Part shown: in pieces, positions 5,901 through 60,710 of the stretch
Layout of the letters: each line of letters opens with the position of its first letter
Numbering within the stretch: position 1 is the first letter of the stretch
Assembly: GCA_008632985.1 (NCBI GenBank)
Contig: QPGO01000060.1
Span: forward strand, 124,001-188,000
DNA length: 64,000 bases
Source: Psammoneis japonica
Taxonomy: Eukaryota
Reading direction: 5' to 3'
Translations under genes and position numbers: made by a program
Notes under the pieces: generated by a model
Database searches by the model: none
The model's input: only the letters and a program-made list of their open reading frames with translations
Told to the model about the DNA's origin: nothing

Positions 5901-6167
5901 GCCTGCAAGGTTGGTCGATGATGTTGACTTCATAGCGCAAGCTTTTGAAATAAATCCTTTTATCTTGTTGCGCGTCAGTCGAAGTCATGGTCTGCACAGA
6001 TCCTAAAAAACTGGGTGGTGTGCCAAGAGGAGTTCGAGAGCCTTGGGGAATGAGGCTGATTCTGGCGATTGTCTTGAGTCGAGCGCCATCGACAGCATCA
6101 AATAGATTAAGAGTTCAAAGAACGTGTTCATGATGTCTATTTTCTGCATAGTCTACTGTAGCTACAA

Positions 6168-9100: not shown

Positions 9101-12100
9101 GCGAATCGATCCGGAAATATTGCAACGCTCACCCACGTTCAAGAACGGTAAGCCCAAGTGGTTATGAACATCATCGACAACCAAGTCTTCGAGACCAGAA
9201 AGCCACATCTTGGGACGGCCAATGTCTGGAAGCTGTCTTGGCTTGTACTGCTCCGACATTTCGCGAATGGCCTTGATGTGGGGCGGAGTGGATCCACAGC
9301 AACCACCAACCATGTTCAACCACCCGTTCTCGAAAAATACCTTATTGTACTCTGCCATATCTTCCGGTGTTTCGTCATAGCCACCCATGGCGTTGGGAAG
9401 ACCAGCGTTAGAGTACACATGGACAAAACATTCGACAACCTTGGCAAGTCTCTCAACGAACGGAGTCATGTGCTGGGCACCAAGAGCACAGTTAAGACCC
9501 ACACACATGGGCTTGGCGTGACGGACCGAAGCATAAAAGGCTTCTCCAGTTTGACCGGACAAGGTGCGGCCCGACTGGTCCACAAGAGTTCCAGAAATAA
9601 ACACGGGGATGTCTAACCCAGAAAAGTCCAAGAACTCGCCAATTGCGAACAATGCAGCTTTGGCGTTAAGTGTATCGAAAATGGTTTCCACCATTAGAAT
9701 ATCAGCACCACCGTCGACCAACCCAACAACTTGCTCAAAGTACGTCTCCACCAACTCGTCAAAGGTCACGTTTCTGGCCGAAGGGTCTTCTACCGAAGGA
9801 GAAATTGAACCAGTACGGTTGGTCGGACCAATGGCACCCACGACAAAGCGGGGCTTGGTGGGGTCCTTGGCTGTTACCTCGTCGCAAGCCTCACGAGCTA
9901 GTTTTGCACCGCAATAGTTCAGTTCATAAGCATATGCCTCCATATTGTAGTCAGCCATGGCGATTGTTGTTGAAGAAAAGGTGTTAGTTCCAATCAAATT
10001 TGATCCTCCTTCTTCAAGATACGCCTTGTAAATGTCCGAAATGATTTGAGGCTGTGTAATGGACAACATATCGTTGTTTCCCTTGACATTGCAGTTCCAA
10101 TCCTTGAACTGCTCTCCACGGTACTCTTCTTCGTCGAGCTTGTTGCGCTTGGCATAATTCTGAATCATTGTACCCATGGCTCCATCATAGATTGCAATCT
10201 GACTCGTAAAGAGCGACGTAATATATTCCCGTACCGAATCACGTCCTCGTACAAAGTGAGGAAACGACTCGGGGTATAAATCACGAGGCTGCGAGTAATC
10301 AATACAGATATCTTTGCTTGCGGTAGTTGATTTCTGGCGAATAGCGGTAATCTTCTCGTGGGTGAGATTGGAGTTCAAATAGGGGTTCGGGACATGATTC
10401 TTCGCAGCTTCTGACGTTGGTAGAGGCGGTTCGATGGCAGGTTTGGGGGTGACATTGTCATACGAGAATGCAAGGCGTGGCCTGTTTACAGGTTTGCCAC
10501 GAGGCTTCCGAGGCGGAGGCAAGCCCTTCTTTTTGGCGTCGATGCATGCTCTTTCATACGCTGTCCGCTTCAACATCTCGTCTGTCGCATCCTCGGTCTT
10601 GTTGAATACGAGGTTCTCGCATAGCACCCTCATGTCGTCGTCTAATTCATCGATAGCAAGCATTTCTTTCGCATTCACAATACCAACGTCCATTCCGGAC
10701 TCAAGTATGGCGTGATGCAGGAACACGGCATGAATTGATTCGCGGATTTTCGTTACTCCTCTGAATCCAAACGAGAGGTTCGAAATACCACCGCTGACCT
10801 TCACGTACGGACACTGTTCCTTGATGGTCTTTGTTGCGTTGATAAAGTCAACTCCATAGTTGGCGTGTTCCTCCATGCCGGTACCAATCGTCAATACATT
10901 GGGATCAAACACAATATCTTCTGGAGGGTAACCCACTTCATTTACAAGAATGTCGTACGAGCGTTTGCATATACGAACCTTGTCCTCCTCGGTCGCAGCT
11001 TGTCCTTGTTCGTCAAACGCCATGACTACTACTGCAGCACCGTGTTTCTTCAACAATGTCGCTTGTTCCTTGAACAACTCTTCTCCGACCTTGAGAGAGA
11101 TGGAGTTCACAATACACTTGCCCTGGCACCACTTGAGTCCAGCCAAAACAATTTCGAATTTGGACGCATCCAACATAAAGGGAACTTTTGCTACTTCAGG
11201 CTCCGTGACAGCAATCTTGACAAACTTTTGCATAGCGGCCAATCCATCAAGCATACCGTCATCGACATTGATATCAATCACATGAGCACCATCCTCGACT
11301 TGCTTCTTCGCTATATCCATGGCTGTTCCATAGTCACCCGCCATCATGAGCTTTTTGAAGCGAATCGATCCGGAAATATTGCAACGCTCACCCACGTTCA
11401 AGAACGGTAAGCCCAAGTGGTTATGAACATCATCGACAACCAAGTCCTCGAGACCAGAAAGCCACATCTTGGGACGGCCAATGTCTGGAAGCTGTCTTGG
11501 CTTGTACTGCTCCGACATTTCGCGAATGGCCTTGATGTGGGGCGGAGTGGATCCACAGCAACCACCAACCATGTTCAACCACCCATTCTCGAAAAATACC
11601 TTATTGTACTCTGCCATGTCTTCCGGTGTTTCGTCATAGCCACCCATGGCGTTGGGAAGACCAGCGTTAGAGTACACATGGACAAAACATTCGACAACCT
11701 TGGCAAGTCTCTCAACGAACGGAGTCATGTGCTGGGCACCAAGAGCACAGTTAAGACCCACACACATGGGCTTGGCGTGACGGACCGAAGCATAAAAGGC
11801 TTCTCCAGTTTGACCGGACAAGGTGCGGCCCGACTGGTCCACAAGAGTTCCAGAAATAAACACGGGGATGTCTAATCCCGAAAAGTCCAAGAACTCGCCA
11901 ATTGCGAACAATGCAGCTTTGGCGTTAAGTGTATCGAAAATGGTTTCCACCATTAGAATATCAGCACCACCGTCGACCAACCCAACAACTTGCTCAAAGT
12001 ACGTCTCTACCAACTCGTCAAAGGTCACGTTTCTGGCGGACGGGTCTTCTACCGAAGGAGAAATTGAACCAGTACGGTTGGTCGGACCAATGGCACCCAC

Positions 12101-15018
12101 GACAAAGCGGGGCTTGGTGGGGTCCTTGGCTGTTACCTCGTCGCAAGCCTCACGAGCTAGCTTTGCACCACAGTAATTCAGTTCATAAGCATATGCCTCC
12201 ATATTGTAGTCAGCCATGGCGATTGTTGTAGAAGAGAAGGTGTTAGTTCCAATCAAATTTGATCCTCCTTCTTCAAGATACGCCTTGTAAATGTCTGAAA
12301 TGATTGAGGCTGTGTAATGGACAACATATCGTTGTTACCCTTGACATTGCAGTTCCAATCCTTGAACTGCTCTCCGCGGTACTCTTCTTCATCGAGCTTG
12401 TTGCGCTTGGCATAATTCTGAATCATTGTACCCATGGCCCCATCATAGATTGCAATCTGACTCGTAAAGAGCGATGTAATATATTCCCGTACCGAATCAC
12501 GTCCTCGTACAAAGTGAGGAAACGACTCGGGGTATAAATCACGAGGCTGCGAGTAATCAATACAGATATCTTTGCTTGCGGTAGTTGATTTCTGGCGAAT
12601 AGCGGTAATCTTCTCGTGGGTGAGATTGGAGTTCAAATAGGGGTTCGGGACATGATTCTTCGCGGCTTCTGACGTTGGTAGAGGCGGTTCGATGGCAGGT
12701 TTGGGGGTGACATTGTCATACGAGAATGCAAGGCGTGGCCTGTTTACAGGTTTGCCACGAGGCTTCCGAGGCGGAGGCAAGCCCTTCTTTTTGGCGTCGA
12801 TGCATGCTCTTTCGTACTCTGTCCGTTTCAGCATCTCGTCTGTCGCATCCTCGGTCTTGTTGAATACGAGGTTCTCGCATAGCACCCTCATGTCGTCGTC
12901 TAATTCATCGATAGCAAGCATTTCTTTCGCATTCACAATACCAACGTCCATTCCGGACTCAAGTATGGCGTGATGCAGGAACACGGCATGAATTGATTCG
13001 CGGATTTTCGTTACTCCTCTGAATCCAAACGAAAGGTTCGAAATACCACCGCTAACCTTTACGTACGGACACTGTTCCTTGATGGTCTTTGTTGCGTTGA
13101 TAAAGTCAACTCCATAGTTGGCGTGTTCCTCCATGCCGGTACCAATCGTCAATACATTGGGATCAAACACAATATCTTCTGGAGGGTAACCCACTTCATT
13201 AACAAGAATGTCGTACGAGCGTTTGCATATACGAGCCTTGTCCTCCTCGGTCGCAGCTTGTCCTTGTTCGTCAAACGCCATGACTACTACTGCAGCACCA
13301 TGTTTCTTCAACAATGTCGCTTGTTCCTTGAACAACTCTTCTCCGACCTTGAGAGAGATGGAGTTCACAATACACTTGCCCTGGCACCACTTGAGTCCAG
13401 CCAAAACAATTTCGAATTTGGACGCATCCAACATAAAGGGAACTTTTGCTACTTCAGGCTCTGTGACAGCAATCTTGACAAACTTTTGCATAGCGGCCAA
13501 TCCATCAAGCATACCGTCATCGACATTGATATCAATCACATGAGCACCATCCTCGACTTGCTTCTTCGCTATATCCATGGCTGTTCCATAGTCACCCGCC
13601 ATCATGAGCTTTTTGAAGCGAATCGATCCGGAAATATTGCAACGCTCACCCACGTTCAAGAACGGTAAGCCCAAGTGGTTATGAACATCATCAACAACCA
13701 AGTCTTCGAGACCAGAAAGCCACATCTTGGGACGGCCAATGTCTGGAAGCCTTCTTGGCTTGTACTGCTCCGACATTTCGCGAATGGCCTTGATGTGGGG
13801 CGGAGTGGATCCACAGCAACCACCAACCATGTTCAACCACCCATTCTCGAAAAATACCTTATTATACTCTGCCATGTCTTCCGGTGTTTCGTCGTAGCCA
13901 CCCATGGCGTTGGGAAGACCAGCGTTAGAATAGACATGAAGGAAACACTCAACGACCTTGTCTAGTTTCTCAACAAACGGAGTCATGTGCTGGGCACCAA
14001 GAGCACAGTTAAGACCCACACACATGGGCTTGGCGTGACGGATCGAAGCGTAAAAGGCTTCTCCAGTTTGACCGGACAAGGTGCGGCCCGACTGGTCCAC
14101 AAGAGTTCCAGAAATAAACACGGGAATGTCTAACCCCGAAAAGTCCAAGAACTCGCCAATTGCAAATAATGCTGCTTTGGCATTGAGTGTATCGAAAATG
14201 GTTTCCACCATTAGAATATCAGCACCACCGTCGACCAACCCAACAACTTGCTCAAAGTACGTCTCTACCAACTCGTCAAAGGTCACGTTTCTGGCGGACG
14301 GGTCTTCTACCGAAGGAGAAATTGAACCAGTACGGTTGGTTGGACCAATGGCACCCACGACAAAGCGGGGCTTGGTGGGGTCCTTGGCTGTTACCTCGTC
14401 GCAAGCCTCACGAGCTAGCTTTGCACCGCAATAGTTCAGTTCATAAGCATATGCTTCCATATTGTAGTCAGCCATGGCGATTGTTGTAGAAGAAAAGGTG
14501 TTAGTCCCAATCAAATTTGATCCTCCTTCTTCAAGATACGCCTTGTAAATGTCTGAAATGATTTGAGGCTGTGTAATGGACAACATGTCGTTGTTACCCT
14601 TGACATTGCAGTTCCAATCCTTGAACTGCTCTCCGCGGTACTCTTCTTCGTCGAGCTTGTTGCGCTTGGCATAATTCTGAATCATTGTACCCATGGCTCC
14701 ATCATAGATTGCAATCTGACTCGTAAAGAGCGACGTAATATATTCCCGTACCGAATCACGTCCTCGTACAAAGTGAGGAAAGGACTCGGGGTACAAGTCC
14801 TTGGGTTGATCATAATCCAAATCAACGTTCTTAACGGTTGCTTTCTGACGAATCGCCGCTATTTTCTCATGAGTCAACTTTGAATTCACATAGGGATTCG
14901 GAACATGGTTCTGAGCAGCATAGGATGTGGGTAGTGGAGGCTCGGTTGCTTCTTTTGGCTCCACGTTGTCATACGGAAAGGTAACTCGAGGCAGATCGGG
15001 CCGTTCTGCCTTGCTCAT
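6168..15018 (-). CDS. metH: Cobalamin-dependent methionine synthase with a triplicated Hcy-binding + pterin-binding module (~2865 aa if a 1-bp indel at ~12304 is corrected)
   Basis: ATG 15018. There are three copies of DGAMGT...GLNCALG...GGCCG (Zn/Hcy domain) and GERCN...DINVD (pterin domain), then a cap domain ([14 protein letters not shown]), the B12 motif DVHDIG and an activation domain (RPAPGYP). Introns at 7821-7902, 7296-7386 and 7035-7115 restore conserved sequence. Confidence 0.95.
8260..15018 (-). repeat. Intragenic tandem triplication in metH, period 2259/2258 bp
   Basis: Identical antisense ORFs start at 9564, 11823 and 14081. The copies differ mostly at synonymous positions. Confidence 0.95.
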
Positions 15019-15593
15019 TTTTCTTGAAGCCCACAGGAGTGAAACAGAGACCGCTTTGTTCAACTGAAAACAGATTAGACCTCAAGACTTGAATTAGAGC
15101 TCTATCGATTCCACAAAGTCTTCTTGTCTTCGTCTATTTTTGCTCTATGTTGAAGTCGCAAAATGTGGAATGATGACGAAAGAAAAGCACGTGCTGAGTT
15201 GTTTGGCTCTGAAACATGCGTAAAAAACTTCCCGCCAGTTTTTCTTGGGCCACTGGAACGTGCGCATTCAACGCATAGTACAAATCTTCGTAGATTTCAC
15301 GCAGGTAGAATGAAGTACATCGGAACCGCACATTTTCGTAGGACTGAAGGACGTACCGTACTGTTCAGGTTGTATGCGCATAAAAGACGCGCACACCAGT
15401 GCAATGTCGGACAGACGACGGCCGCACAATTGATTGCGCATTGCTTGCGATTCGCACGACAAATTGCCGTTCGACGCCGACGATGACGATGACATTTTCA
15501 GACGCTGATAGAGGACGACTTCGCAACATGCACTTAACACATTTTAATCAATTCCACTGTTATGAACACACACATGCAAAGAAAGTCCCCAGA

Positions 15594-15869
15594 TGACAGA
15601 AAATGAAGGCAAATGGCAAGAATTCAAACAACAACTCCTTGCTGCTGTCTAAATGGCAGATGAGTCTCCGCTCAGAGACCGTTACAGGAGCCGAAAGACG
15701 TGCAAGTTGGTATAATCGGGCTACTGTCATTGTTCTTGTGAGCCTTGTGGCTCAAAAGCAAACTGCATCGTGCGTGAACGCGCAGAACTAAAGCACACAA
15801 AACTGTGCACGGCAAACTAAACAGCGCGCGATGCTTCGCGCGCACCTAAATCCTGTTCAAATCCTGTCA
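15594..15869 (-). repeat. 3' LTR of the copia (hypermutated copy)
   Basis: It aligns without gaps to 22424-22699 with 13 substitutions. Confidence 0.97.
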
Positions 15870-18800
15870 CTCCCCAGTTTGCTTGAGGAGCCACAGAAAC
15901 AGATTCGACTTCGGATGGAATGAAGTTCCAGAACATGAGGGGGCGGAGAAGGTCCCAGATTTGGGAGCAACCCCAATGCTTGCTGAGAATGTCAGCAGGG
16001 TTGCGGGAGCCTTCGATGAATTGGAACTCAAGGCAACCAGAGGCAATTGCCTCACGCACACGGTGGAACGACAGTGCGGTGTGTCGCTTGTGTAACTTGG
16101 AGTGCGGGATGGTGGCACTGTCTACAACCGACTTGTTGTCACCGAACATGTGACTGACGTCACGGATCGGGACGCCAAGGTGGCGCAGGGTGATGCGCAG
16201 GTCGATGGTCTGCTCAACACAAGTCCTTGCGGCAACAAATTCAGACCCGCAGGTCGCAGTCTCCACGGTGGCTTGTTTCTTAGAGAACCAATCAGCCGGG
16301 AATTTGTTGAGGAAGTGGAGCATTCCCATGACAGAGCGTCCGGTGAGCATGCAATGGTGCAAGTTTGCATCGACGTAGTGGGTGGCAGTGACGAACTTGC
16401 CAAGGGGCGGTGGAGCGTCCTTCGGGATCATCTCTTCTGCTTCACCACACACGGAATGCATCCATTCACAGGCCGGAGCAGGGAGATCCGAACAGTCGGG
16501 CTCTTCCGTGCGAACGCGGAGAGCACCGTGTCGCATCTTGGAGAGGCACCCACAGACGCATTTGGCACGATCCAAGTGGCCTTGACGGGGCGCAGCTCGG
16601 AAGCTAGAGAGTGACATGACGGCCGTGGTGATGTCAATTCGACCAAGGGACACTGCCCATTGGAGTGAACCAACAAGAGACTGGAACTTGTGAATGCCAT
16701 CGGGTCCCAGCAGTTCGGAAGTGTCCAGTTCGGGGTGGTCACCCTTCTCTAGAGGTGACAGGGTGTTGGTGGCAGGTTTCTCCCCAAACAGTCGGGCACA
16801 GCTGTCGACCATGCGCTCGATGTACTTGCGCGGAGACAGGCACAAGGTTCCGTCGGGTTCCCGGGAAAAGTCGCAACCCAGATGGAACTCAATGGGTCCC
16901 GCACCCTTGAGCTTGAACTTGTGCTTTTCCGTGAGAGTGTCGACGAAAGATTGAGGGTCCTTCATGGCAATGGCGAGGTCATCCACATAAACGGCAATGT
17001 ATTCACAGTGGTCGCCGTTCCTGCGCATCCAAATGTCGGGTTCGGCGCGGCAGGGGAAGAAGCCTTCAGCTCGCAGGCAGTCGGCGAAGCGCTCGTGCCA
17101 GCGGAGACCGGAGCTGCGCAGTCCATGCAGTGCCTTGTGGATGACAAGGATGTGTCCTTCGAGTTTGCCGAACTCGGGTCCAGCTACAATGTAAAGCTTC
17201 TCCTTGGTGGTGGCTTCAAGGTAGGCATTGCCAATGTCGGTGGCCCATGTCTCCAACTCGTTGAGTTCGGCCAGGAAAATCATCAGCCGAAGGCCACGGA
17301 GGGAGACTACTCCGGAGTAGACACTGTCGACAGGTACGTCCGTGAGGTGCCCGTCGGCTACGAGTCGTGCCTTGTGGCGACCGTCGTGTTTCACATCGTG
17401 CGCTAGGTGCACTCGGATCTTCTTGCATCCCGCAGGAGGAGTGGAAGACTTGAAGGGCCCGCAGTCATGGAAGACTTCGTATTCGTCGAGTTGGTCCATC
17501 TCGAGATTGGTTGCGTCTCCCCACTTGCGGTTGCCGTTGCGTTCGTCTAGTGACATGGCGTGTTTGTAGTTCCGGGGAACTTCGCATCCACACTTGCAGC
17601 GGGGTGCAGTGCGGAAGGAGCGAAGCTTGGCTTGGTTGGCCATGCGAAACAGCTTCTTTTGGCGCCTCGCGATGGTGCGGAACCGCTTCCAGCCATCCGT
17701 GTCGAGGAGTCCGTTCTCTCGTGCATAGATGGCACAGGTGACGGGGTCGTCCTTGGCGATGATGGCAAGAGGCTCGGACGTGATCTCCCCACTTTCCCAT
17801 TCAAGCATGATGTTGTAGCTGGAGCCTTTCCAGGTTGGGTCGTGAGGCTTCAGAGGTCCTTCGTGTGACACGATGCATCGAAATTTCCAAACAGTGGTGT
17901 CTTCGTCTTCTTGCTCAATGTGATTCATGATGTCATTGCAGGCGAGGACTTCCTCGTATTCGTCATTGTTGACAGAGCAGACGAACTTAGTGAGCTCGGG
18001 ATTGCCATTCACTTTCCATTCGTGGTCTTCGACGGCCTTGACGATGCGAGCTCTGTGGCGTTGTCCATCCTCTTGTGGCTGCATGAGGAAGGTACGTCCA
18101 ATGATGTCTTGCGGATCGAAAACTGGCATCTTGGGTGTCCTGATCTCCCCATCAGGAGAGTCGACGGGGTTGTCGTCATGGCAAGATTTGATGATGGGTT
18201 CAGGTGGCTCCCCATCAGGAGGATCAAGACGCAGGTTTCGAACGGCAGGATCGGGGGTAGCGGAGCGGACGTTGGACCGGTAGAGGATCTTCTGAGTCTC
18301 GTCAGATAGAATCTTGAAGGTCATCTGGTGGCCGACGTGCTCAGCAATGCCAACGAAGCGTCCACGCAACTCACGGGATTCAGACGGCCAATCGGAGTCA
18401 TCGAGGTGGAAGTGCACGGGTTCCCACCAGTGAAAGCGAAGCAATGGGCTGATGTCCGGGGTGGAGCCAGTGAGAGTCTCGAGGGGCGTGCGCCAGTGGA
18501 GACGTGGGGACGCTGCATGGTTGAGCATGAAGCACACGCACATGAGCGCCAGCAGCCATGTGTGGGCGGGCGAACCAAAACGATCCATGACAGTGTTCGC
18601 CATGCGCTTCACGGTCTGGCATCGACGCTCGGCAAAGTTTTGGTGTTGCTGGTGAGGCTCACTTTGCCAGCTAGAGATGAAGAGGGCGCGCAGGATCCCG
18701 AGCACTTTGTTGCTGATCTCAACTTGAGCACGGTCGCTAATGAGTTTGGATGGGGCACCACGTGCACGGATCTGATCCTCGAGTGTGTTGACAAACTCTT

Positions 18801-21486
18801 TGTCCGTCTTAGTGCCGTAGACGTCAGTGACGGTAGACTCGGTGCCAACAAACAGTTGGGCGCTGGTGCAACCAGAGTCGACGGCCGGGGTGTCGGCACA
18901 AACGGTGTCAGTGGCGACAGGCTCGTTGCGGCGGTGCACATTAAGGGCGGGGTTGGGTGATTTGTAGGCCTTGCGAAGGTGTGTACCGGCGGGCATGCGG
19001 GCGTACTGCGTGGTGCAGTCAAAAGTACGACGGACCGTGTCGGTAGGTAGGAAGCCAAAGTAAGGCCGAAGAGACTCGAAGGGGGGGTCCTTGGGCTGCA
19101 CAGTGCGCTCCGGAGGTGTAACGTCATCGCCCTGGGGGCCAATCGCATGCAGATGACACTCGCAGAACACGTCGTCGTTCGGAATGAGGTGATCATCGAG
19201 GGCGGACGCGTGATCGGCAGACAAGGAAGCGGACAAGATGGTCTCGTTGACAACGACACGATGACGGTAGTTGCCGCATTCGTCAAACAGGTTGGCAGTG
19301 GGATCGTCCTGTAGGTCAGAGATCGCGTCGTACCACTGGTCGTCGTCAGTGACAGAGTGATCGAGGACGGAAGGGTCCCATGTGTCATCACCGGTGAGGA
19401 TGACATGGGGCAGGGTGTCCCATTCGGCGTCAGTGTAAGGTCGCATGGCAACATAAGGCAGGCCAGCCTTGATGTCAATGGGGATGACACAGCCATCAGG
19501 AGTGGCAATACGTTGCAAGCCGTTGGGCACCTTGACAGAGTGATCGTTGACATCCTGTTTGTGCCATTCGAGCTGGCCGCAGGAATGGATGGTCTTGCCC
19601 TTTCCCGTGCATGCGTGCTGATGGAGGATGGCGATGACGGGACCACGCTGGGTCTCAATGACGGCACCAGCGGTGACAATGGGGATGTCCACCAATTGAT
19701 GATCGTCAATGCCCTGAACGTCGACTTGGCGAGAGGTGCGTGCAATGACGCGAACGTTGTCGCCAGCAATGCCGCCGTTGGCCCCACGATCGACTAGAGC
19801 ACCAGTGCGTGTGGATCGATGAGCAGAGGCAGAGTAAATGACATTGTGGTTGTCAACGCGGCGGCAAGTGCGGCCGTTAAGCTCCATGTTATCTGCAGAA
19901 GCTGGCGGGGTAGAGGAAGCGGCGGATGGCCCCGGTCGACTGGCATTGGGGGCTTGGTTAGGAGACAACAGACGTTGCAGATCACTGGGTGGCAGTGGCT
20001 TGCGCTTGGTGAGGTGCGCCAGGATGGGATTGTCCGAAGTGGCGTCCACATGTGGGGCGGAGTCACCAGAGTCAGCAGGAGTCGTGTTGGACAAGTTGAC
20101 ATCACCGTCACTCCCAAGGTGTTGGTCGTGAAGGTTGGCCGTAACAGACTCATGGCAGTTGCTGGCTCGCGGATTGCGGGGAGGTGGACGAGAATGCTCA
20201 AGGATGATCGCCTTGGAGGAATCGGGCAACGAGTCCCAGAGCCGTTGGTGGTCGGGAGGGAGACGTCTCCATTGGACACCGGTGAGGCTGGGACCGCGGG
20301 TGCAGGCAGCATTGGCTTGAAGGACGTCAACATCGCTGTCAATGTCGTAGAACACATCGTCGGACGGTTCCTCGGAGCAGACGTCGTGTGCGTGTGTGGC
20401 GCGTCGGGGAGCTCGAGGTGTCGTCTTGGGTTGAAACGTGCTGTCGTACTGAGCTGCCGCGGAGAGGAGCAAGCCACAGCATTGATCGTATGTGAGGCTC
20501 TTGCCACTCTGCGTACGATGCTGATCAGCTTGGTTCTTGACAGCACGGAGTTCCTCGACAGGGTGCACGGCATTCTCGAGCATGACGCGCTTCTGTCCTT
20601 CAGAGAAGTGGTCACTGGCCGGGGTGAGTGCCTCGCACTTGCGCAACTGATCTTGCCAATGAAGGATGAACCCGTGGGTCGGACCTTTCCAAGTGCCATC
20701 ACCAAGACGCGCGGTGGTGAGGTACGTGAGCAGGGTGGAGGACTCGATGGATGCGCGGGTGGAGGCAAGCGCGCACTCAGACAAGGAGCGGCAGACGGTC
20801 TGTGCGTCAGAAGACCCCACATTTTCGCGAATGAGAGCCTTGCCCTTGTCGGTGAGAAGGATGTGTTCGAAGATGGCGAACATGTGCTTTTGCTGTTCAG
20901 CAAAGAGCAGTTTGTCTTCGGGGCTGGTCGGTTTGTACGACGAGTCTAGAATGCACTTGACGTCTTGGGCACGGGCTTGTGCCACAAGTGAGGTGTGCCA
21001 AGTGTGCCACTGCTTGTCGGATTTGAGAGCCGTGAAAGCGGTGGGATCACACTTGATGCCTCGCTTGAAGTCCCGCACCGGGTCGCGTGCCTTGGTCGGG
21101 TTGGTGACATGTGGAGGTGCAAGGGGTGAGCTGCCGATGGACACAGAAGACATGCAGTCGGGGCTGAGGCGGCAGGCAAGGAACTCGTCATGCGTGAACA
21201 AAGAGGAGTTGTTGGCAACGTCAAGACCTTTGTGTGCTTTAACAATGTGCAGACTGACCAGTGCTGCTAACATGTTCTTACAACCACGGGGCAAAGGGAT
21301 TGCATCAGTGCCGTTGTCGCACTCAAGCGAGTCGATTTGGGACGGCATGAACGTGAACAGTTCCTGACATGAGTCCGTGCCGTCTTGGGCCAAAGCCAAA
21401 CGAAGAGGACTCCCAGCACCTTGGGCAAGCACGGTTCCAACCACGTGCTCGAAACCATCGGTTTGTTGCTGGCGAGTGAGAACCAT
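15817..21486 (-). CDS. Copia gag-pol polyprotein (protease-integrase-RT-RNase H), open but with many Tyr>Cys/His changes
   Basis: ATG 21486. Motifs in copia order: protease LVDRGANGG; integrase ATDTV / SDRAQ / AERR; RT KARLVADG, DIGNAYL, YVDD; RNase H YVDANL, SEF, GDN, ADILSK. The stop codon lies inside the 3' LTR. Confidence 0.95.
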   Translation of the reverse strand: MVLTRQQQTDGFEHVVGTVLAQGAGSPLRLALAQDGTDSCQELFTFMPSQIDSLECDNGTDAIPLPRGCKNMLAALVSLHIVKAHKGLDVANNSSLFTHDEFLACRLSPDCMSSVSIGSSPLAPPHVTNPTKARDPVRDFKRGIKCDPTAFTALKSDKQWHTWHTSLVAQARAQDVKCILDSSYKPTSPEDKLLFAEQQKHMFAIFEHILLTDKGKALIRENVGSSDAQTVCRSLSECALASTRASIESSTLLTYLTTARLGDGTWKGPTHGFILHWQDQLRKCEALTPASDHFSEGQKRVMLENAVHPVEELRAVKNQADQHRTQSGKSLTYDQCCGLLLSAAAQYDSTFQPKTTPRAPRRATHAHDVCSEEPSDDVFYDIDSDVDVLQANAACTRGPSLTGVQWRRLPPDHQRLWDSLPDSSKAIILEHSRPPPRNPRASNCHESVTANLHDQHLGSDGDVNLSNTTPADSGDSAPHVDATSDNPILAHLTKRKPLPPSDLQRLLSPNQAPNASRPGPSAASSTPPASADNMELNGRTCRRVDNHNVIYSASAHRSTRTGALVDRGANGGIAGDNVRVIARTSRQVDVQGIDDHQLVDIPIVTAGAVIETQRGPVIAILHQHACTGKGKTIHSCGQLEWHKQDVNDHSVKVPNGLQRIATPDGCVIPIDIKAGLPYVAMRPYTDAEWDTLPHVILTGDDTWDPSVLDHSVTDDDQWYDAISDLQDDPTANLFDECGNYRHRVVVNETILSASLSADHASALDDHLIPNDDVFCECHLHAIGPQGDDVTPPERTVQPKDPPFESLRPYFGFLPTDTVRRTFDCTTQYARMPAGTHLRKAYKSPNPALNVHRRNEPVATDTVCADTPAVDSGCTSAQLFVGTESTVTDVYGTKTDKEFVNTLEDQIRARGAPSKLISDRAQVEISNKVLGILRALFISSWQSEPHQQHQNFAERRCQTVKRMANTVMDRFGSPAHTWLLALMCVCFMLNHAASPRLHWRTPLETLTGSTPDISPLLRFHWWEPVHFHLDDSDWPSESRELRGRFVGIAEHVGHQMTFKILSDETQKILYRSNVRSATPDPAVRNLRLDPPDGEPPEPIIKSCHDDNPVDSPDGEIRTPKMPVFDPQDIIGRTFLMQPQEDGQRHRARIVKAVEDHEWKVNGNPELTKFVCSVNNDEYEEVLACNDIMNHIEQEDEDTTVWKFRCIVSHEGPLKPHDPTWKGSSYNIMLEWESGEITSEPLAIIAKDDPVTCAIYARENGLLDTDGWKRFRTIARRQKKLFRMANQAKLRSFRTAPRCKCGCEVPRNYKHAMSLDERNGNRKWGDATNLEMDQLDEYEVFHDCGPFKSSTPPAGCKKIRVHLAHDVKHDGRHKARLVADGHLTDVPVDSVYSGVVSLRGLRLMIFLAELNELETWATDIGNAYLEATTKEKLYIVAGPEFGKLEGHILVIHKALHGLRSSGLRWHERFADCLRAEGFFPCRAEPDIWMRRNGDHCEYIAVYVDDLAIAMKDPQSFVDTLTEKHKFKLKGAGPIEFHLGCDFSREPDGTLCLSPRKYIERMVDSCARLFGEKPATNTLSPLEKGDHPELDTSELLGPDGIHKFQSLVGSLQWAVSLGRIDITTAVMSLSSFRAAPRQGHLDRAKCVCGCLSKMRHGALRVRTEEPDCSDLPAPACEWMHSVCGEAEEMIPKDAPPPLGKFVTATHYVDANLHHCMLTGRSVMGMLHFLNKFPADWFSKKQATVETATCGSEFVAARTCVEQTIDLRITLRHLGVPIRDVSHMFGDNKSVVDSATIPHSKLHKRHTALSFHRVREAIASGCLEFQFIEGSRNPADILSKHWGCSQIWDLLRPLMFWNFIPSEVESVSVAPQANWGVTGFEQDLGAREASRAV

Positions 21487-22412
21487 GGCAGACAAAAAAT
21501 GGTGTCAGGACAATCAATTCTGGTTGGGAAGCGAAGGCAGACTCGAAACTTGGGTGAGAATGGACTTGACTTGAAATGGACTTGACTTGAAATCTTGAAC
21601 TATCTTAAAATCAGAAGTCGCCGGGCTTTGTCATCCCATTCGTTGTTGAGTGCTAAACTTCCCATCCGGTCCGTAGAGTTGTGCCGGCACGTCCGAACCC
21701 GCAGCTGGCGGCGCTTTGGGTTGCTTGCGAGCAGAGTAGCGGGTTGTAAACCCCTGCAGGTAAGCTGACTGGAGGTGGACAAGACCCCCGAACCGTTCTT
21801 ATTTTATGTCGGTTGGATTTCCCGATCAGGCTGGCCAGTTGACGCAGGCGTTGGGCGCTGTGGACGAACGAACAAACGCGGGAAAGCACCCTCGCCCCAA
21901 CGCAGGCTGCAATCACGGCTGCTTGCTCTCACAGTCGTCCTCGTGGACCTAGTAGAACTGTAGAGCACCAGCAGTCCGGGGTAGATCAGGTACAATGGAC
22001 TCGGTGTGCTTGTAGAGTGGCAGCAAAACCGCAGTCCGAAGAGTGGGTACAGGTTCTTGGCCGTGAAGATATGTATATATATATATGTCTTCAGCAACGA
22101 AGATCCTTGAATATGTAGGGTTCTTGACCGTTAACCGATGAATAGGTATATCAAGGGATGAGGATCAAGGATAGACTTGGATATGACCGTTGAATGTATG
22201 TCTTCAGCGATCGAAGGTAGTATAATCAATCCAGATATCCAGCGGTAAGGAGACTTGACGGTGACGTTAACTTCCTGCCGATGCCCTGGTATTGAATGCG
22301 CGTAGACTTGCCGATGTATGTAGAATATATACGGAGGTCCACGTAGAATTAAAAAGTCGTTGGTAAATCAACGACGACGATGGCGGTTGCTCAATGGGTT
22401 GACAATGAGCAA

Positions 22413-22423
22413 GACTGTTAATC
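22413..22423 (-). promoter_or_regulatory. Candidate primer-binding site complementary to a tRNA-Asn(GTT) anticodon arm
   Basis: The plus strand reads GACTGTTAATC immediately inside the 5' LTR, which is an Asn anticodon stem-loop sequence. There is no TGG-type PBS. Confidence 0.55.
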
Positions 22424-22699
22424 TGACAGAAAATGAAGGCAAATGGCAAGAATTCAAACAATAACTCCTTACTGCTGTCTAAATAGCAGATGAGTCTCCG
22501 CTCAGAGACCGTTACAGGAGCCGAAAGACGTGTAAGTCGGTATAATCGGGCTACTGTTATTATTCTTGTGAGCCTTGTGGCTCGAAAGCAAACTACATCG
22601 CGCGTGAACGCGCGGAACTAAAGCACACAAAACTGTGCACGGTAAACTAAACAGCGCGCGATACTTCGCGCGCACCTAAATCCTGTTCAAATCCTGTCA
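22424..22699 (-). repeat. 5' LTR of the copia (retains TA and CG)
   Basis: It aligns without gaps to 15594-15869. Confidence 0.97.
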
Positions 22700-22704
22700 C
22701 CAGA

Positions 22705-25700
22705 CGAACTTTTCTCTCAATTGTCGTTCGACAATGGAGAGCATCAAACAATGGAAAAAACAGAGCTCGGCATTGTGTGATGTTTGCTGTCAAGCAGAGG
22801 TTGCTCACGGGGACTTGCATGACTTGACACATTCTTAAACTCAATGGACTGAATGTCTGCAAGAGTGAACAAAAGACTCTGGGGCATGTCTCTGCCATCC
22901 CTGTCGTCTCACGATGACGCACAAACTTCATGTCACCGATTTTTGGTGATGAGGCACGCAGCGCTCCAGGCATTTCTCACAGAGCAGAAAATCCTGAAAA
23001 ATCATGTCATCATGCCTTCACCCCTTTGTTCTGCGATGGCCTTAAATCCTCCCAATTTGGGACAAATCGAGGGATTTGAAGACAAACGCATGTCCATCGT
23101 TTCCATCAACAAATGTCCGCGATTTCAAATCAAAAACCTGCCCTCCCAACCAGGTTGTGCACATCAACAAGTTGGTGACAAAGCAACATTCCATCTGTGT
23201 TTTTCTGACTGACATTTGATCACTTTGCTTGTTTTCCAAAATCTTGATTTGTGGTGCATGTTTGCACAATTCAACAATGCAAGCATTTGGTTTGCACCGC
23301 ATTTTTACAACTGAATTTTTCAATCCCTTGTTGCTCTCCAGTTCATTTGTGACTTCCTTCAAAGCAGTCATGAGCTCCTGTGTCTTCTGCTCTGTTTGCA
23401 CCTTGTTCATGTTCTTGTTTTGACTGTCTCATGATTTCTCCCTTGCCTCCTTGAACTGGTTTGCCAGCTCCTGCACCACCCCTTGTGTTCCATCATCTCT
23501 TCTGGGTCTTTTTCCAACCAGGTGAATGTGCTTGAGTTGTTGTCTGTGTCCTTGCCTTCTTCTCTGCAATGACAAGCTCTGGCAGGATCCTCTCACAGAA
23601 GTCTTCTCCCCTGGTTGGGTTTCCTCCATTGTCCACCTCCACATCACAGTCTGAGCCAAAAGAGCTGTCCTTGTTGTTGCTCTTGCACACTCTGCATGCC
23701 ACACATCAAAGTTGTTCTTCAGGAGCATGTGGGCAAATGCTTTGGCACATGATGTGCCCATCCTTGTCTCCCAACCATTCTCTCCCACTGCTGGTTGCAA
23801 GCAACAGGCAGTTGCAGAACACCGTGTGCAATGCAGGGTTGGACAAACGCTCGTGGAATCTTTCCAGCAATGACAACACACAATTGTTTTTTGTGGCAAG
23901 TGCAAAGCTTTGTGCAACAAGGAATGCATCAACAACAATGTCAGTGTTTGTCTTGCTTGTCAACGCTGCTGGCCACACACTCTCACTGTGGCTGCAATTG
24001 GTCCTGCTGAGCCTGGTGAGCATTTGATTGCTTCAGTGCTGGCCACTCCTGATGCATTCTTCCTTTCTTCATTTTCATCCACAGAAAATGCAGGCATGAA
24101 GTTTGTTGCACCTCTGGAAGCTCCAACAGAGAGCATTCTGCATTCCATCCATCAGCACTGGTCCACAGTGCTGGGCAAAGTCTTTGTGCAGCATGCTCAT
24201 TTCCTCCATCTGCCTTTCAACAAACACAAACATGATGCTGAGAAACACCTTTTCTTTGACATGGTCTCTCACCTTGATTTTGCTGCATGCCCTGCCATCA
24301 TTGGCCATCCACTCAGCTGGGTTCACTTGCCTCTGGAATGTGGTTGTCATGATTTGGTTGGCACTTGGTTGTGTGGTGTTTTTTGCAAAGCTCACCTTTT
24401 GCTTGTCAGTCATCTTGTTGCCAGGGTTCACCATTGCAATCTGATCTCCTTTACAATCAGCCAATGCTCCCAGGTCAGGTGTGCATTTGAGCCTTCTTGA
24501 GATTGAAAATCTCCACACAAGCACCCACATTGTCATGTGTGGACAACATTGGCATGGAAATGCTCATGAAGTCCAATGCCTCCTGGGTTCAGTTCTCAAT
24601 GCGTGGATGCAAGTCCAGCAGAAAATTGTGCCTGTGCTGCAGCCAAAGAGTCAACCACTTTGGCAGGAGGAGATTGATGCTGACTGAAAAGAAATCTTCA
24701 ATGAGTTTCCCACCTCCCGGGTCAAGCAGCAGTGCACATGGACCACTTTGAATGCAAAAAAGCATTTGTGTTTTTGCCTCATGAAACTGGCAAAGTTTCG
24801 CCACATTCGCCACTGCTGTGGCCAAATGCAGCATGTCACACAAACATTGGCAAAGAAACCACACCCAACAGCCTTTGCATTGTCATCAATTGCACCTCTC
24901 CTGCTGTGGAGAAGGTGTTGCTGTCTTCAGCAACAAGATCTTTGCTTGGCAATGGAGTGAGAAGGTTCTGTCTTTGTTCTTCCGCAGTGAGGCATCACCA
25001 TCATCCTGAACAGACACACACCAAAATCTTCTTTAGCCTCATCAGCCAGCCCACAGTGGTCTCTTGTTGTCATTTGTGATGGTGTTGTGCAATGGTGTTG
25101 CAAAGCATCCTCACATGGTGCAGTGCACACTTCAAGAGTTTTGCACTCAGAAAAGGCGTCAGGGGCAATGTTGTCATCCTTGGAGCAACCCAGCATTTGC
25201 TGCTGAGTTTTCATCATGCAGGACATTCTGTGCAATGACACAGGGTGTTGTCAGGGGCAGGTTCTGTAATTCTGCCATTTTCTTGGTCAGATTCTTGAGA
25301 AGTTTGCACGGGAGTCCTCTTGCACCTTTGTCACTTGTGTGGATCACTCCTGGCAGCATCGCATTTGGCTGTGGAGCCACCATGCCCACATTTGAGCTGT
25401 TTCAATCATGCCAGTGGATGCTTGAGGTGCTGAGCCATGTTCCTCAATGGAGCTCTTGTAGGGCAGTCATGGCCATCGACACACTGTGCAATTCGTGCTC
25501 TCATCCACACCTGCTTCCTCTGCACTGTTCAACAAGAATTTGCCATGCCAAGAGAAAAACACTGAGGAGCACGCGAAACATTGTTCTGGTGTTTTGGATG
25601 GCACTGCCACATTCACAGCACACTCGGTCGAAACATGCTGTTTGTGCAGATGACCACTCTACACAGGGCAATGTCGGTTGTCTGCATCGGCACGTACTCG
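22705..25700 (-). mobile_element. Decayed TpA/CpG-depleted element, possibly a DNA-transposon remnant, with the copia inserted at its edge
   Basis: TA and CG are nearly absent. Broken minus-strand fragments ('VRDHVKEKVF', 'AFAHMLLKNNFDVW', 'GWKK') resemble diatom TE accessory ORFs, but the family could not be assigned. Confidence 0.5.
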
Positions 25701-53152: not shown

Positions 53153-53508
53153 GACTGTAGCACAAAAACGATTCAGGATGGAGAAGTGGCGAGCACAAGA
53201 GGGGATGGTTCATGGGTTCTCGGTTCTAGCTAAAGTAGAGAGTCATTCACAGTCACGGTTCATTCACGGTTGCCATTTTGGATTTCCACAAAGTCACTGT
53301 AGGGCCTCTAGCTAGTGACAGACAGACGGACCCCATGAGCACACATGCCGTACACACAACACATGCGGCACATCACATAAATGATACACCACACACCAGA
53401 CCAGTCCCCCATTGTTTTCTTGGCAGTCAGCAGCTGGTGAAATGGTCACAACCATGGTCCTCTGCAGAGGCCAGATGTTGCAAAAGTTTCCCACCACAAC
53501 CTGGCTGC

Positions 53509-59500: not shown

Positions 59501-60710
59501 CACATTGAAGGAGATCTCAAGAACATGCAGCCAGAATTGAAGGAGGCTCAAGGAGGTTTTGGACATCGAGACCTGCTTGGTGAGTTGTTGTGTGTGCATG
59601 TCATTTGCCGCCTTGACATCGGCTGTGCTGTTATGACCCTTTCCAAGTTTGTGGTGTCTCCTGCTCTGGTGCACTGCGTTGCATTGAAAGGGATTGCCAG
59701 CCCTCTTCACTGCATGAAGTGTTGGGATGTCAGCTGCAAGAAGCCCATCAAGGACTCAACTTTGCCTGTGCACCCCCACAAACAACTTGAGGCAGACCCA
59801 ACTCTCTCTTTGTTCCCATCAGCAGATTCTCTTGCACAGCTGCTTGCTTTCTTGGATGCATTCTGCAATGACCTTCATGACCATTGCTCTGCCACTGGCT
59901 GTGGTTGCATGATGTCAGCCAGTGAGGCAGTTCCTTGCCATTGCAAGACAAAAATGGTGGCTGCGACCAGTTCCATGAAGGCTGAGTGAGTTTTGTGTCA
60001 CTCACTGGCACCACTGCAAAACATGTCCTGTGCCTGCAATGATCAGTCCTCAAGAAGCTTGGTTGCCCCCTCAAGATGATGCCACTCCTCTCTTTGTTGA
60101 CAGCAAATCAGTGCCATCAAGATCACCAACAATTGTGTTCCCACCAAGCAATCTTGCCACATTGACATCCAGTGGTTTGTCATCCAAGACTGGAAAGAAG
60201 ATGGGGGTGCCATTGCCAGACACATCCCAGCCATTGTCAACCCCAGCGATGATCTCACCAAGGCTGCTCTTGGTTTGATGCCACATGCCCATCATGCTCA
60301 CCAGCTCATGGGATGCTGCCACTGAGTCTTTTGTCCTGACTCTGAATGGCATCTGCTGAATTGCCCTTTTTGTGTTTTGTTCTCTTGTTTGTTGGTCATC
60401 TGGTCTACATTGCTCTGGAGACCAACTGCTGTCTTCCCTTTCATTCTGTCTGTGATCTGCACTGCCTTTTTAGACATGCTAGATCAGAGGAGGGTGTCAG
60501 TCAACCTGGTCTGCTGCACACGGTGCCAGACTGTTTGCAGATGACAGCCAGGCATCTAGACCAGACAGACAAGCAGATCTCTCTGAGATTTGCTCGTCTC
60601 ACTCTTTCTTGCTGGCACCCATGTTGTCACTGTCACTGGTTTGTGGGGAGGACCCTTGCACTTGTTGCTCTTGATTTGCTGCTCTGATGGCTGCTGTTTT
60701 CTCACACAGT
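53509..60710 (+). mobile_element. Heavily decayed Ty1/copia element (frameshifted, Tyr-depleted)
   Basis: Diverged LTR-like repeats start TGTCAGTC(G/A)ACCTG at 53509 and 60495, the latter after the purine tract AGAGGAGGG; both contain CATGTTGTCACTGTCACTGGTTTG. Relics: integrase (MDQG...PTGTDASNQN...KFWPCAF, ~57370), RT (GSPRAAP, GDAQDACAHS, LQGHPES, QVDDF, ~58780-59190) and RNase H (LLGELLC, HIDIQWF). The LTR 3' ends are approximate. Confidence 0.85.

Follow-up and report, generated by a model that had tools for sequence, protein, structure and literature searches.

How two long terminal repeats (LTRs) of one retrotransposon came to differ only by transitions at TA and CG dinucleotides, with every change on the same side, is the question raised by this locus of Psammoneis japonica. 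The element spans 15594–22699 of the window, that is, of the 64,000 nt analysed here from one contig of one genome.

Structure of the copia element

The element is an intact Ty1/copia LTR retrotransposon on the minus strand. Self-comparison of the window gave a direct repeat pair at 15594–15870 and 22424–22700 with 95% identity, and the LTRs, read as TG...CA with the termini TGACAG...CCTGTCA, are 276 bp in length. The target-site duplication CCAGA is found at 15589–15593 and 22700–22704, and its identity on both sides indicates one insertion with no crossover between elements. The insertion site is also supported by a read-derived contig (depth 60) that crosses the left flank and covers 29 nt of the LTR, a single mismatch being present over 323 nt. 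An uninterrupted gag-pol ORF of 1892 aa is located at 15817–21495 on the minus strand and overlaps the left LTR by 53 nt. Since it is the sole long ORF and lies on the minus strand, the left, TG/CA-bearing copy (15594–15869, minus strand) is the 3′ LTR of the element, and the copy at 22424–22699 (minus strand) is the 5′ LTR, adjoined by a 5′ leader at 21594–22423 (minus strand). The reverse transcriptase sits in the C-terminal third of the polyprotein, where RVT_2, the sole Pfam domain called, matches aa 1356–1565 (E = 1e-26); the Pfam search gave no integrase upstream of it. The polyprotein has 953 homologues at E ≤ 1e-3, with PF07727 in all of the 120 listed, and copia-type homologues align with it end to end at 97–99% coverage. 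A second copy of the element family or of its LTR was not found in the window by blastn or by tblastn with four homologues.

Differences between the LTRs

The preliminary description of this DNA had counted 13 differences between the LTRs, nine of TA and four of CG against TG/CA, and a recount in the assembly sequence gave exactly the same number and split, all of them transitions. They are located at 15632, 15641, 15655, 15703, 15708, 15728, 15732, 15754, 15765, 15771, 15784, 15813, and 15833, and the TG/CA state is in the 3′ LTR at 13 of 13 sites, the 5′ LTR keeping TA at nine and CG at four. The dinucleotide counts made by hand could likewise be reproduced: the copy at 22424 contains 17 TA, nine of which read TG (5) or CA (4) in the copy at 15594, and 20 CG, four of which are changed; 8 TA are left in the 277-nt repeat at 15594–15870 (TA o/e 0.45). 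None of the 203 of 277 nucleotides that lie outside TA and CG in the 22424 copy differs. The probability of all 13 differences falling in TA or CG nucleotides is 3.5e-8, that of at least nine of 13 falling in TA nucleotides is 2.8e-6, and the restriction of all 13 changes to one LTR has p = 2.4e-4 under random hits. TAC was changed at 5/8 occurrences versus 4/26 for other TAN (p = 0.017), and the TA changes were divided 5 versus 4 between the strands.

The same asymmetry is found in the rest of the element. The leader lacks the TA depletion, and TA o/e is 0.93 in the leader plus 5′ LTR versus 0.26 in the remaining element, with one boundary between TA-normal and TA-poor sequence near 21600–21900. 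The ORF and the 3′ LTR are depleted alike, each having lost approximately 52–53% of its TA, and CG is nearly intact in this young element. Simple uniform decay in place would not predict one-sided LTR changes together with a spared leader.

Direction and context of the changes

The polarity TA>TG/CA proposed earlier is borne out by the ORF of the same element, in which TA is ancestral and conserved Tyr codons have become TGY or CAY. The Tyr content of the polyprotein is 1.43%, versus a median of 3.84% and a minimum of 2.86% in 120 homologues, and its Cys content is 2.91% versus 0.92% (maximum 1.28%) in the same set; His is enriched as well. Conserved Tyr columns were defined by Tyr in at least 80% of 60 homologous polyproteins, and the 42 columns obtained comprise 16 in which the element kept Tyr, 17 with Cys (TGY), five with His (CAY), and four with Phe. 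Other conserved columns were changed at 54 of 726 (Fisher p = 2e-17 for the Tyr excess). The TA arm thereby accounts for changes at 22/42 conserved Tyr columns versus 3/57 conserved Arg columns for the CpG arm, so that TA is lost about 10 times faster than CpG at codons. Invariant Tyr residues were kept more often than the others (8/13 vs 8/29, p = 0.047).

Variation within the family was read from contigs of sequencing reads, four DNA runs of one sample and one study being on record. The family is of very high copy number, with a summed depth of 60,000–380,000 in the element bins versus 495 in the flank bin. In one of the runs (X1), it varies at 256 transition versus 23 transversion places, and 3402 of 13,111 contigs are at least 99% like the window. 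Forty of 285 variable places were listed, and 19 of these 40 were read by codon; among the places read, the TA state at family-variable sites corresponds to the residue conserved in 49–60 of 60 outgroup proteins. At aa 336, 350, 893, and 1310, for example, the window has TAC, Tyr is found in 49–55 of 60 outgroups, and TGC makes up 52–93% of family depth, and at a Val column conserved in 60/60 the window has GTA and 69% of family depth has GCA. Reverse cases, with CAC or TGC in the window and TAC in other family copies, were also present. TA>TG/CA states are common to 52–97% of family depth at many sites, and these shared states, together with the better-kept invariant Tyr residues, indicate that part of the load was inherited through transposing lineages. 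The 40 of 285 places listed include one LTR difference out of 13, the CG site at 15708, with C in 96% of the family, and at three LTR sites two loose contig ends show 5′-LTR-like letters in other copies. For the nine TA differences of the LTRs, the support for TA as the ancestral state is indirect.

Tyr codons in GTAC context comprise six Y>H, six Y>C, and five kept, and to judge from these codons, both strands are hit equally in GTAC. Together with the 5:4 division in the LTR, this 6:6 ratio upholds the earlier argument that A>G on both strands speaks against editing of a single RNA or cDNA strand. The preferred context, as far as it can be read from the variable sites, is 5′-TAC-3′ (equal to 5′-GTA-3′): TAC was found at 11 of 12 window-TA sites among the 40 places listed, and the highest family shares of change (0.80–0.93) among these places are at TACG. 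Two-step codons of the type TACG>TGCG>TGTG are also present. As for CpG, the window has TG/CA where other copies have CG at 15 of the 40 listed places (8 T>C and 7 A>G), and private CpG losses occur at listed places in the ORF of the element.

Blocks lacking TA and CG

Three blocks of the window, 13,689 nt in total, are almost devoid of both dinucleotides, with o/e values of 0.04 for TA, 0.10 for CG, 1.91 for TG, and 1.82 for CA. Their YR-step fraction (0.241) is equal to that of genic DNA (0.238), which indicates that TA and CG disappeared through transitions. The blocks lie at 3163–5951 (12 TA, o/e 0.06; 22 CG, 0.14; TG 1.87; CA 1.74), 23099–25477 (5 TA, o/e 0.03; 15 CG, 0.11; TG 1.78; CA 2.06), and 53379–61899 (17 TA, o/e 0.03; 47 CG, 0.09; TG 1.96; CA 1.79), the last of which contains a relic Ty1/copia element on the plus strand and is the one of the three with an established transposon origin. 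A Pfam search with 16 stop-to-stop ORFs from the three blocks, including two from 3163–5951 and five from 23099–25477, gave no family at E ≤ 0.1. In a purine/pyrimidine-collapsed self-comparison of the window, the blocks were unrelated except for the LTR remnants of the relic.

The relic, whose GC content (0.486) is like that of the genome, contains a reverse-transcriptase ORF of 358 aa at 58320–59396 (plus strand); at E ≤ 1e-3 it has 400 homologues, the best of them at 8e-51. This ORF contains no Tyr in 358 residues and 1.4% Arg; 6/6 conserved Tyr columns are changed (four His, one Cys, and one Phe), as are 8/9 conserved Arg columns (four Gln and one each of Cys, His, Lys, and Ala). A further relic ORF at 59297–59986 (plus strand) matches the copia polyprotein profile on its RNase H side (positions 1595–1657, E = 2.6e-5), and a word-based homologue search with it gave no match. 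The putative 5′ and 3′ LTR remnants (53507–53695 and 60493–60673, plus strand) pair with each other, and the anchored core of their alignment contains 130 identical positions, nine TG<->CA double changes, 11 other transitions, 15 transversions, and 22 gap columns. A 337-nt tandem repeat within 3163–5951 likewise has 7–9 TG<->CA double changes per copy pair. These doubles in the relic LTRs and in the tandem repeat indicate that the changes arose after duplication, in the chromosome.

DNA that is spared

The claim that the process is directed at transposons also holds in the window, where genes, a genic triplication, and ordinary intergenic DNA are spared and the relic copia element is saturated. 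Genic DNA has o/e values of 0.57 for TA and 1.00 for CG, and its TA o/e is low at all codon phases (0.48–0.60); ordinary intergenic windows of 500 nt have TA o/e values of 0.86–1.15. The value of 0.43 for non-coding DNA as a whole is a mixture of the blocks with normal intergenic DNA and does not denote a genome-wide bias. A tandem triplication of MetH (3 × 2.26 kb, 94–98% identical), which is genic and known from the assembly alone, has normal TA and CG, and its copies differ by 64 transversions, 37 other transitions, and 14 TA>TG/CA changes, an ordinary spectrum. There is no per-site TA excess in the genic duplicates. Duplication alone is thus not the trigger, since the MetH triplication is unhit. 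In the flank of the element, one SNP between the window and a run is TA/CA.

Proposed process and alternative explanations

The observed direction, strand symmetry, context, regional targeting, saturated end state, and metagenome protein signature (described below) are probably best explained by a transition hypermutation at the DNA level that is strand-symmetric and transposon-directed and converts TpA (fast) and CpG (more slowly) to TpG/CpA; we assign this reading a probability of approximately 0.7. The LTR differences would then be one visible part of a wider hypermutation of transposon DNA next to spared genes. Its targets would be the two self-complementary pyrimidine-purine steps, TpA and CpG, with TpG/CpA as the product. 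The young element may represent an early stage, with about half of the TA lost from the ORF and 3′ LTR, and old copies could proceed to saturation, giving multi-kb DNA without TA or CG and with doubled TG/CA. Heavily mutated ORFs would stay open because TA>TG/CA cannot make a stop codon. The CpG arm may be 5-methylcytosine deamination in the methylated chromatin of transposons, and an activity converting A to G (or T to C) would be needed for the TpA arm. For the latter, enzymatic deamination of adenine in DNA is a low-confidence candidate and our first choice; a TET/JBP-type oxidation of the thymine methyl group, acting on 5-methylpyrimidines in TpA and 5mCpG, is the second choice, and context-biased T:G>C:G repair is the third. 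The broader idea of an undescribed genome defence in marine, diatom-like stramenopiles, in which a putative enzyme system would convert A:T to G:C at TpA of silenced transposons alongside CpG methylation, with a 5′-TAC-3′ preference and as a mirror image of RIP, the repeat-induced point mutation of fungi, is offered tentatively, its chances being slightly below even. Transposons would, under this idea, end up as sequence that is free of TA and CG and poor in stop codons.

Part of the pattern could have been produced by other routes. Gene conversion, in which the 5′ LTR and leader were replaced from a less mutated copy, or the 3′ side from a more mutated one, would account for the single boundary with 13/13 changes on one side of it, is plausible in a family of such high copy number, and would preserve the target-site duplication, which is indeed intact. 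Protected promoter-proximal chromatin would look identical, however, and we consider conversion unlikely, if a serious candidate; the LTR differences would then sample family polymorphism, which is compatible with hypermutation at the family level. Editing of RNA or cDNA during the retrotransposition cycle, accumulating along transposing lineages after the 5′ LTR had been copied, agrees with the many changes common to most family copies, with a spared 5′ LTR and leader beside an equally hit ORF and 3′ LTR, and with an ORF that is still open. The excess of Y>C over Y>H (17:5) would also suit it, but this excess arises from the TAC preference. Such editing is nevertheless rather improbable: the changes are strand-symmetric both in GTAC and in the LTR, the leader belongs to the RNA and cDNA yet is unmutated, the TG<->CA doubles of the relic LTRs and of the non-LTR tandem repeat postdate chromosomal duplication, and a lineage that is still transposing would hardly have been emptied of TA and CG across 8.5 kb.

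The remaining explanations dispense with a targeted process. A genome-wide bias or selection against TpA (e.g., for RNA stability), with the transposon drifting to equilibrium, would be in line with genes that are low in TA at every codon phase and with the TA/CA type of the single flank SNP, but it is very unlikely in view of the normal TA of ordinary intergenic DNA, the sharp borders of blocks with TA at 0.04, the genic duplicates without per-site TA excess, and the destruction of conserved catalytic-domain Tyr residues, contrary to selection. Modified bases in nanopore consensus sequences typically cause A>G and C>T errors, and the sequencing platform of the assembly and runs is not on record; a signal-based basecaller that reads modified A or C at TpA and CpG of heterochromatin as G or T could be invoked, which would place the error in the assembly and leave the genome unmutated. 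This is hardly credible, since the same kinds of variants occur in k-mer contigs at 60x depth, 3402 of 13,111 contigs are at least 99% like the window, the genes and the 1892-aa ORF are without frameshifts, conversion is complete across 13.7 kb, two-step codons exist, and the Y>C signature recurs in ENA and JGI metagenome proteins. In the reversed reading, RIP-like mutation or non-CpG methylation decay (C>T at CpA/TpG) gave the 5′ LTR its TA, and the 3′ LTR lost CpG. In its favour, all 13 changes are compatible with the notation C:G>T:A, and methylated repeats decay most commonly in this way. The reading would require nine CpA hits solely in one LTR and four CpG hits solely in the other, and it can be set aside almost entirely: outgroups give TA>TG/CA in the same element, C>T at CAA, CAG, and TGG would create stops, of which there are none in 1892 codons, and the relics of the window end TA-free rather than TA-rich.

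Comparison with known systems

The hypermutation proposed here shares with fungal RIP a direction at repeats, a restriction to transitions, a dinucleotide context, and an action on both strands of chromosomal DNA, as well as possible saturation and compositionally odd blocks beside normal genes. RIP, however, converts C:G to T:A (CpA>TpA), gives an AT-rich product, and creates stops, whereas in the window the main arm runs A:T>G:C at TpA, with stops being removed and the GC content of the relic unchanged. RIP also depends on RID/DNMT4-type enzymes and has a premeiotic timing. The label “reverse RIP” used in the preliminary description is best kept as an analogy: duplication, the trigger in RIP, is insufficient alone in the unhit MetH triplication. 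Diatoms carry RID-related DNMT4 proteins, described as being of unknown function by Hoguin et al. (2023, PMC9998398). Methyl-CpG decay likewise produces CG>TG/CA on both strands and near-complete CG loss in relics, and the suggestion that CG loss fits 5-methylcytosine deamination is consistent with 4/20 LTR CpGs changed and with CG o/e values of 0.09–0.14 in relic DNA. It cannot remove TpA, the faster arm in this element, and the claim that TA loss goes beyond such deamination is substantiated by 9/13 LTR changes and 22/42 conserved Tyr columns, all of them TA changes.

APOBEC3 (C>U, minus-strand cDNA) and ADAR (A>I, RNA) also cause context-dependent hypermutation of retroelements, and ADAR has an A>G outcome with a 5′ U preference. 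These enzymes edit a single strand of an intermediate in replication and give an asymmetric signature, in contrast to the symmetric and also post-integration changes in the window, and ADAR is a metazoan family, whereas the host here is stramenopile-like. Very-short-patch repair was reportedly connected by Bhagwat and McClelland in 1992 with the rarity of CTAG in E. coli. As in the present process, a word containing TA is lost to CA/TG, in this case by T:G>C:G-biased repair whose role is to counter 5-methylcytosine deamination, but the system is bacterial, genome-wide, mild, and tetranucleotide-specific, neither regional nor saturating. The natural substrate of TadA and ADAT2-3 is the A in U-A-C-G of the anticodon loop, and early DNA-acting variants of adenine base editors preferred YAC; by analogy, the 5′-TAC-3′ preference may recall the UAC(G) substrate. 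We know of no natural DNA-acting member of the TadA/ADAT family.

RIP, APOBEC, and methyl-CpG decay all run in the direction C:G>T:A. A process aimed at TpA and running A:T>G:C would, if true, be a genome defence or mutator of a new class and imply that an enzyme for adenine or thymine in DNA exists in nature, which could interest the field of base editing. Such a process would, moreover, account for the unusual dinucleotide patterns of these algal genomes and for their long spurious ORFs. As TAA and TAG stops vanish, dead elements keep open frames and put gene annotation at risk, and dating by LTR divergence would be affected in such genomes. A simple screen of genomes and metagenomes could be based on TA/CG-free blocks and on Tyr-free, Cys- and His-rich polyproteins.

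Occurrence in other data sets

In a full-text search of the literature, transposon hypermutation of the type TpA>TpG/CpA was not found to have been described. In viral contigs, 13 pattern matches included no relatives, and in genome contigs nine distant loci were found in mis-binned MAGs, with TA o/e values of 0.55–0.89 and no usable LTR pairs. A metagenome search with the polyprotein gave one partial locus of 2352 nt with 49% identity. On the other hand, 10 of 270 public homologues have a Tyr content below 1.5%, and the seven looked up are from ENA and JGI metagenome contigs. Within one JGI 90% cluster of near-identical copia proteins, from a metagenome unrelated to the present DNA, comparison with a normal member (Tyr 3.3%) revealed mainly Y>C changes (8/44, 9/48, 2/9, and 3/11) and never C>Y; further changes in this cluster are T>A, V>A, I>M, and I>V.

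Structure of the copia-type element and its LTR pair

One direct repeat pair in the window (15594-15870 and 22424-22700, 95% identity) forms LTRs of 276 bp when read TG...CA, and the identical 5-base duplication CCAGA on both flanks (15589-15593 and 22700-22704) indicates a single insertion rather than a crossover joining two elements. The interval between the LTRs has just one long ORF, which encodes a polyprotein (minus strand, 15817-21495; 1892 codons, 0 stops) with a copia-type reverse transcriptase (RVT_2, E 1e-26); its orientation makes the left copy the 3' LTR of the element. No second copy of the element was found within the 64-kb window. The two LTRs differ at 13 sites, and these are transitions without exception. 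At nine sites TA in the right LTR is matched by TG (5) or CA (4) in the left, and at the other four CG in the right LTR is matched by TG or CA. The right LTR holds 17 TA and 20 CG, and its 203 remaining nucleotides all match the left LTR (P = 3.5e-8 for all 13 falling inside TA/CG by chance); on recounting, every LTR count in the preliminary description proved correct.

The 3' LTR carries all 13 changes (p = 2.4e-4 for a random distribution). TA o/e is 0.93 across the 5' LTR and leader (21594-22700) and 0.26 elsewhere in the element, and TA-normal sequence gives way to TA-poor sequence at one boundary near 21600-21900. This promoter-proximal end was either shielded from the process or replaced through gene conversion from a less mutated copy. 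At the opposite end, the ORF enters the 3' LTR by 53 nt (15817-15869) before reaching TAG, and the C-terminus of the polyprotein extends about 35 residues beyond the end of its homologues, consistent with loss of an original TAA/TAG stop through TA>TG/CA.

Direction of change

The polarity of the changes was inferred with outgroup polyproteins, of which 953 were retrieved at E<=1e-3 (best 59-61% identity). Compared with the 120 listed of these 953 homologues, the polyprotein is poor in Tyr (1.43% vs median 3.84%, minimum 2.86%) and rich in Cys (2.91% vs median 0.92%, maximum 1.28%) and His (4.55% vs median 3.55%, maximum 4.27%). At the 42 columns where Tyr is conserved in at least 80% of 60 aligned homologues, the element has 16 Tyr, 17 Cys, 5 His, and 4 Phe, and changes at other conserved columns amount to 54/726 (p = 2e-17 against the Tyr columns). 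At codon level, TAY>TGY corresponds precisely to TA>TG, and TAY>CAY to TA>CA. Of 57 conserved Arg columns, almost all of them CGN in the element, just 3 followed the CpG route, so the element has lost TA roughly ten times as fast as CpG (p = 1e-7). Because TA>TG/CA is unable to create a stop codon, an open ORF is expected despite heavy mutation and is no sign of youth.

Contigs from four DNA runs of one sample were compared with the element over 15300-22423. A depth-60 contig spans the flank and extends 29 nt into the LTR, and the summed depth within the element is 60,000-380,000, so the element family is very high-copy. One of these runs, X1, contains 79 A>G, 79 T>C, 52 C>T, and 46 G>A variable places, together with 23 transversions. 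The codon-level reading of the family draws on 19 of the 40 places listed, out of 285 variable ones. Among these, residues 336, 350, 893, and 1310, where 49-55 of 60 outgroups share Tyr, are TAC in the window and TGC in 52-93% of the family depth; a Tyr column conserved in 60/60 is CAC in 17% of the depth, and a Val column conserved in 60/60 has changed from GTA to GCA in 69%. Conversely, Tyr columns with CAC or TGC in the window have TAC (79%) or the opposite-strand product in other copies, and CGC in some copies reflects the change of both adenines of one TpA. Since these variants fall at columns conserved in the outgroups, TA is the ancestral state and the whole family has been hit by the same process. 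The direction TA to TG/CA, claimed earlier from the LTRs, is therefore supported within the ORF by both the conserved Tyr columns and the family variants.

Within the LTR, 15708 is the sole site among the 40 places listed of 285, and the family is 96% C there, so TG in the left LTR is derived from CG. Two loose contig ends carry the right-LTR letters in other copies at three further LTR sites, and the polarity of the nine LTR TA sites rests on the ORF and parsimony. Many changes are common to most family copies, and Tyr is kept at 8/13 invariant columns vs 8/29 less conserved ones (p = 0.047), so mutated source copies kept being copied, under some selection. A further difference was observed at 15354, in a CGTAC context, where TA in the window is CA in the run; this sole mismatch in 323 nt of the flank contig repeats the type of change found in the element, here in the unique sequence beside it.

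Strand symmetry and sequence context

Conserved Tyr columns show Y>C and Y>H in a ratio of 17:5, an excess that is an effect of context and not of strand. At Tyr codons within GTAC, a word identical on both strands, 6 became His, 6 became Cys, and 5 were kept. In the LTR, 5 of 8 TAC adenines were changed vs 4 of 26 in TAA/TAG/TAT (p = 0.017); TAC is also the context at 11 of the 12 window-TA sites among the places listed, and G follows 8 of 9 TGT Cys codons at Tyr columns, the outcome of a two-step path TACG>TGCG>TGTG. The process is thus strand-symmetric and prefers 5'-TAC-3' (5'-GTA-3'). This symmetry, already proposed from the LTRs and borne out by the GTAC codons, is evidence against editing of a single RNA or cDNA strand.

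Blocks nearly free of TA and CG

Dinucleotide profiles revealed three blocks at 3163-5951, 23099-25477, and 53379-61899, which together (13,689 nt) contain 34 TA (o/e 0.04) and 84 CG (o/e 0.10) and have o/e values of 1.91 for TG and 1.82 for CA. The frequency of pyrimidine-purine steps is 0.241 in the blocks vs 0.238 in genic DNA, and this equality indicates that TA and CG became TG/CA via transitions rather than having been avoided. The first two blocks gave no Pfam matches. The largest holds a relic copia element, in which TA loss has reached saturation: one ORF matches a copia profile (E 2.6e-5), and an adjoining ORF (58320-59396; 400 homologues at E<=1e-3, best 8e-51) has no Tyr among 358 residues (homologue median 3.5%), with Arg at 1.4% (6.6%), Cys at 6.2% (2.4%), and His at 7.0% (3.6%). 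Its conserved Tyr columns are all changed (6/6; 4 His, 1 Cys, 1 Phe), as are 8 of its 9 conserved Arg columns (4 Gln, 1 Cys, 1 His, 1 Lys, 1 Ala).

Putative LTR remnants of the relic (53507-53695 and 60493-60673) differ by 9 TG<->CA doubles in ~170 aligned bases, and the first block contains a 337-nt tandem repeat with 7-9 such doubles between each pair of copies. A double of this kind arises when an ancestral TA (or CG) is resolved independently on opposite strands in two copies, and hence the changes were made in chromosomal DNA after duplication. Separately, a tandem array with a 60-nt period (63135-63710; at least 6 overlapping 214-nt units, 64-79% identity) sits in a stretch with a TA o/e of 0-0.04 and CG still at 0.4-0.6, and may be an intermediate stage resembling the young element.

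Six-frame counts for the element interior (15871-22423) gave 41 TAA, 59 TAG, and 241 TGA; depletion of TAA and TAG leaves many long spurious ORFs of 120-390 aa on both strands in the interior and blocks. In such genomes, dead transposons and relics may be called as genes during annotation.

Sparing of genes and ordinary DNA

Genic DNA of the window, which includes MetH, ISWI-like, UCH, SET/PHD, cyclin, and Serinc genes, has an o/e of 0.57 for TA and 1.00 for CG, and ordinary intergenic windows (500 nt each) have TA at 0.86-1.15; the pooled 'non-coding' TA o/e of 0.43 combines blocks with normal DNA. As a genic control, the substitution spectrum was taken from the tandem triplication in MetH (8312-14975, minus strand; period 2258-2259 bp, copies 94-98% identical), which spans the homocysteine S-methyltransferase and pterin-binding domains of B12-dependent methionine synthase. 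Its copies differ by 64 transversions, 37 other transitions, and 14 TA>TG/CA vs 5 reverse changes, with no per-site excess, so duplication alone is not the trigger. The sparing of genes, intergenic DNA, and the triplication indicates a regional process with sharp borders that hits transposon DNA, which supports the targeting first proposed from the LTR pair.

One junction of the triplication is in frame (ORF 7856-12334, 1492 aa) and the other frame-shifted, and the triplication could be real or an assembly problem. The best matches of MetH have 77-85% identity, with a Triparma match at 64%. The copia element lies ~500 bp upstream of the MetH frame (15081-15594) and shares its orientation; the end nearer the gene is the 3' LTR, and transcription reading out of the LTR into MetH is conceivable.

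The same signature in metagenomes

Among 270 public homologues, ten have Tyr below 1.5%, four of these 0%, and the seven of the ten whose origin was traced all belong to metagenome contigs of ENA and JGI. The JGI cluster examined is a different copia family, 24% identical to that of the element. Its four near-identical members differ from a normal member (Tyr 3.3%) mainly by Y>C (8/44, 9/48, 2/9, and 3/11 of differences), followed by T>A, V>A, I>M, and I>V, each a TA>TG/CA route; C>Y was found 0 times in these four comparisons. The signature is therefore not peculiar to the assembly of this window. This recurrence and the absence of frameshifts in the genes make a basecalling artefact at modified bases less likely. 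The pattern recognized in one LTR pair is thus confirmed and considerably widened, to blocks, a relic, an element family, and metagenomes. A eukaryotic copia polyprotein 52-65% identical to that of the element is also encoded on nine contigs assigned to bacterial or archaeal MAGs; these contigs are probably mis-binned algal DNA.

Possible mechanisms

The host is stramenopile/diatom-like. The CpG arm of the process probably represents 5-methylcytosine deamination in methylated transposon chromatin. Diatom DNMT4 enzymes, which are RID-related and of unknown function (PMC9998398), are relevant at most to this arm. Neither TpA>TpG/CpA hypermutation of transposons nor TA- and CG-free blocks were found described in the openly accessible full-text literature searched, and the TpA arm would require an activity without a described counterpart. 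The preferred candidate is a putative adenine deaminase acting on DNA; TadA/ADAT enzymes act on a UACG substrate, which the TAC(G) preference in the element family resembles. As the next candidate, a putative TET/JBP-type oxidase could act on the methyl group of T in TpA and of 5mC in CpG, and the oxidised 5-methylpyrimidine products would mispair. The third candidate is a putative repair biased T:G>C:G, which may be likened to the T:G>C:G-biased very-short-patch repair of bacteria.
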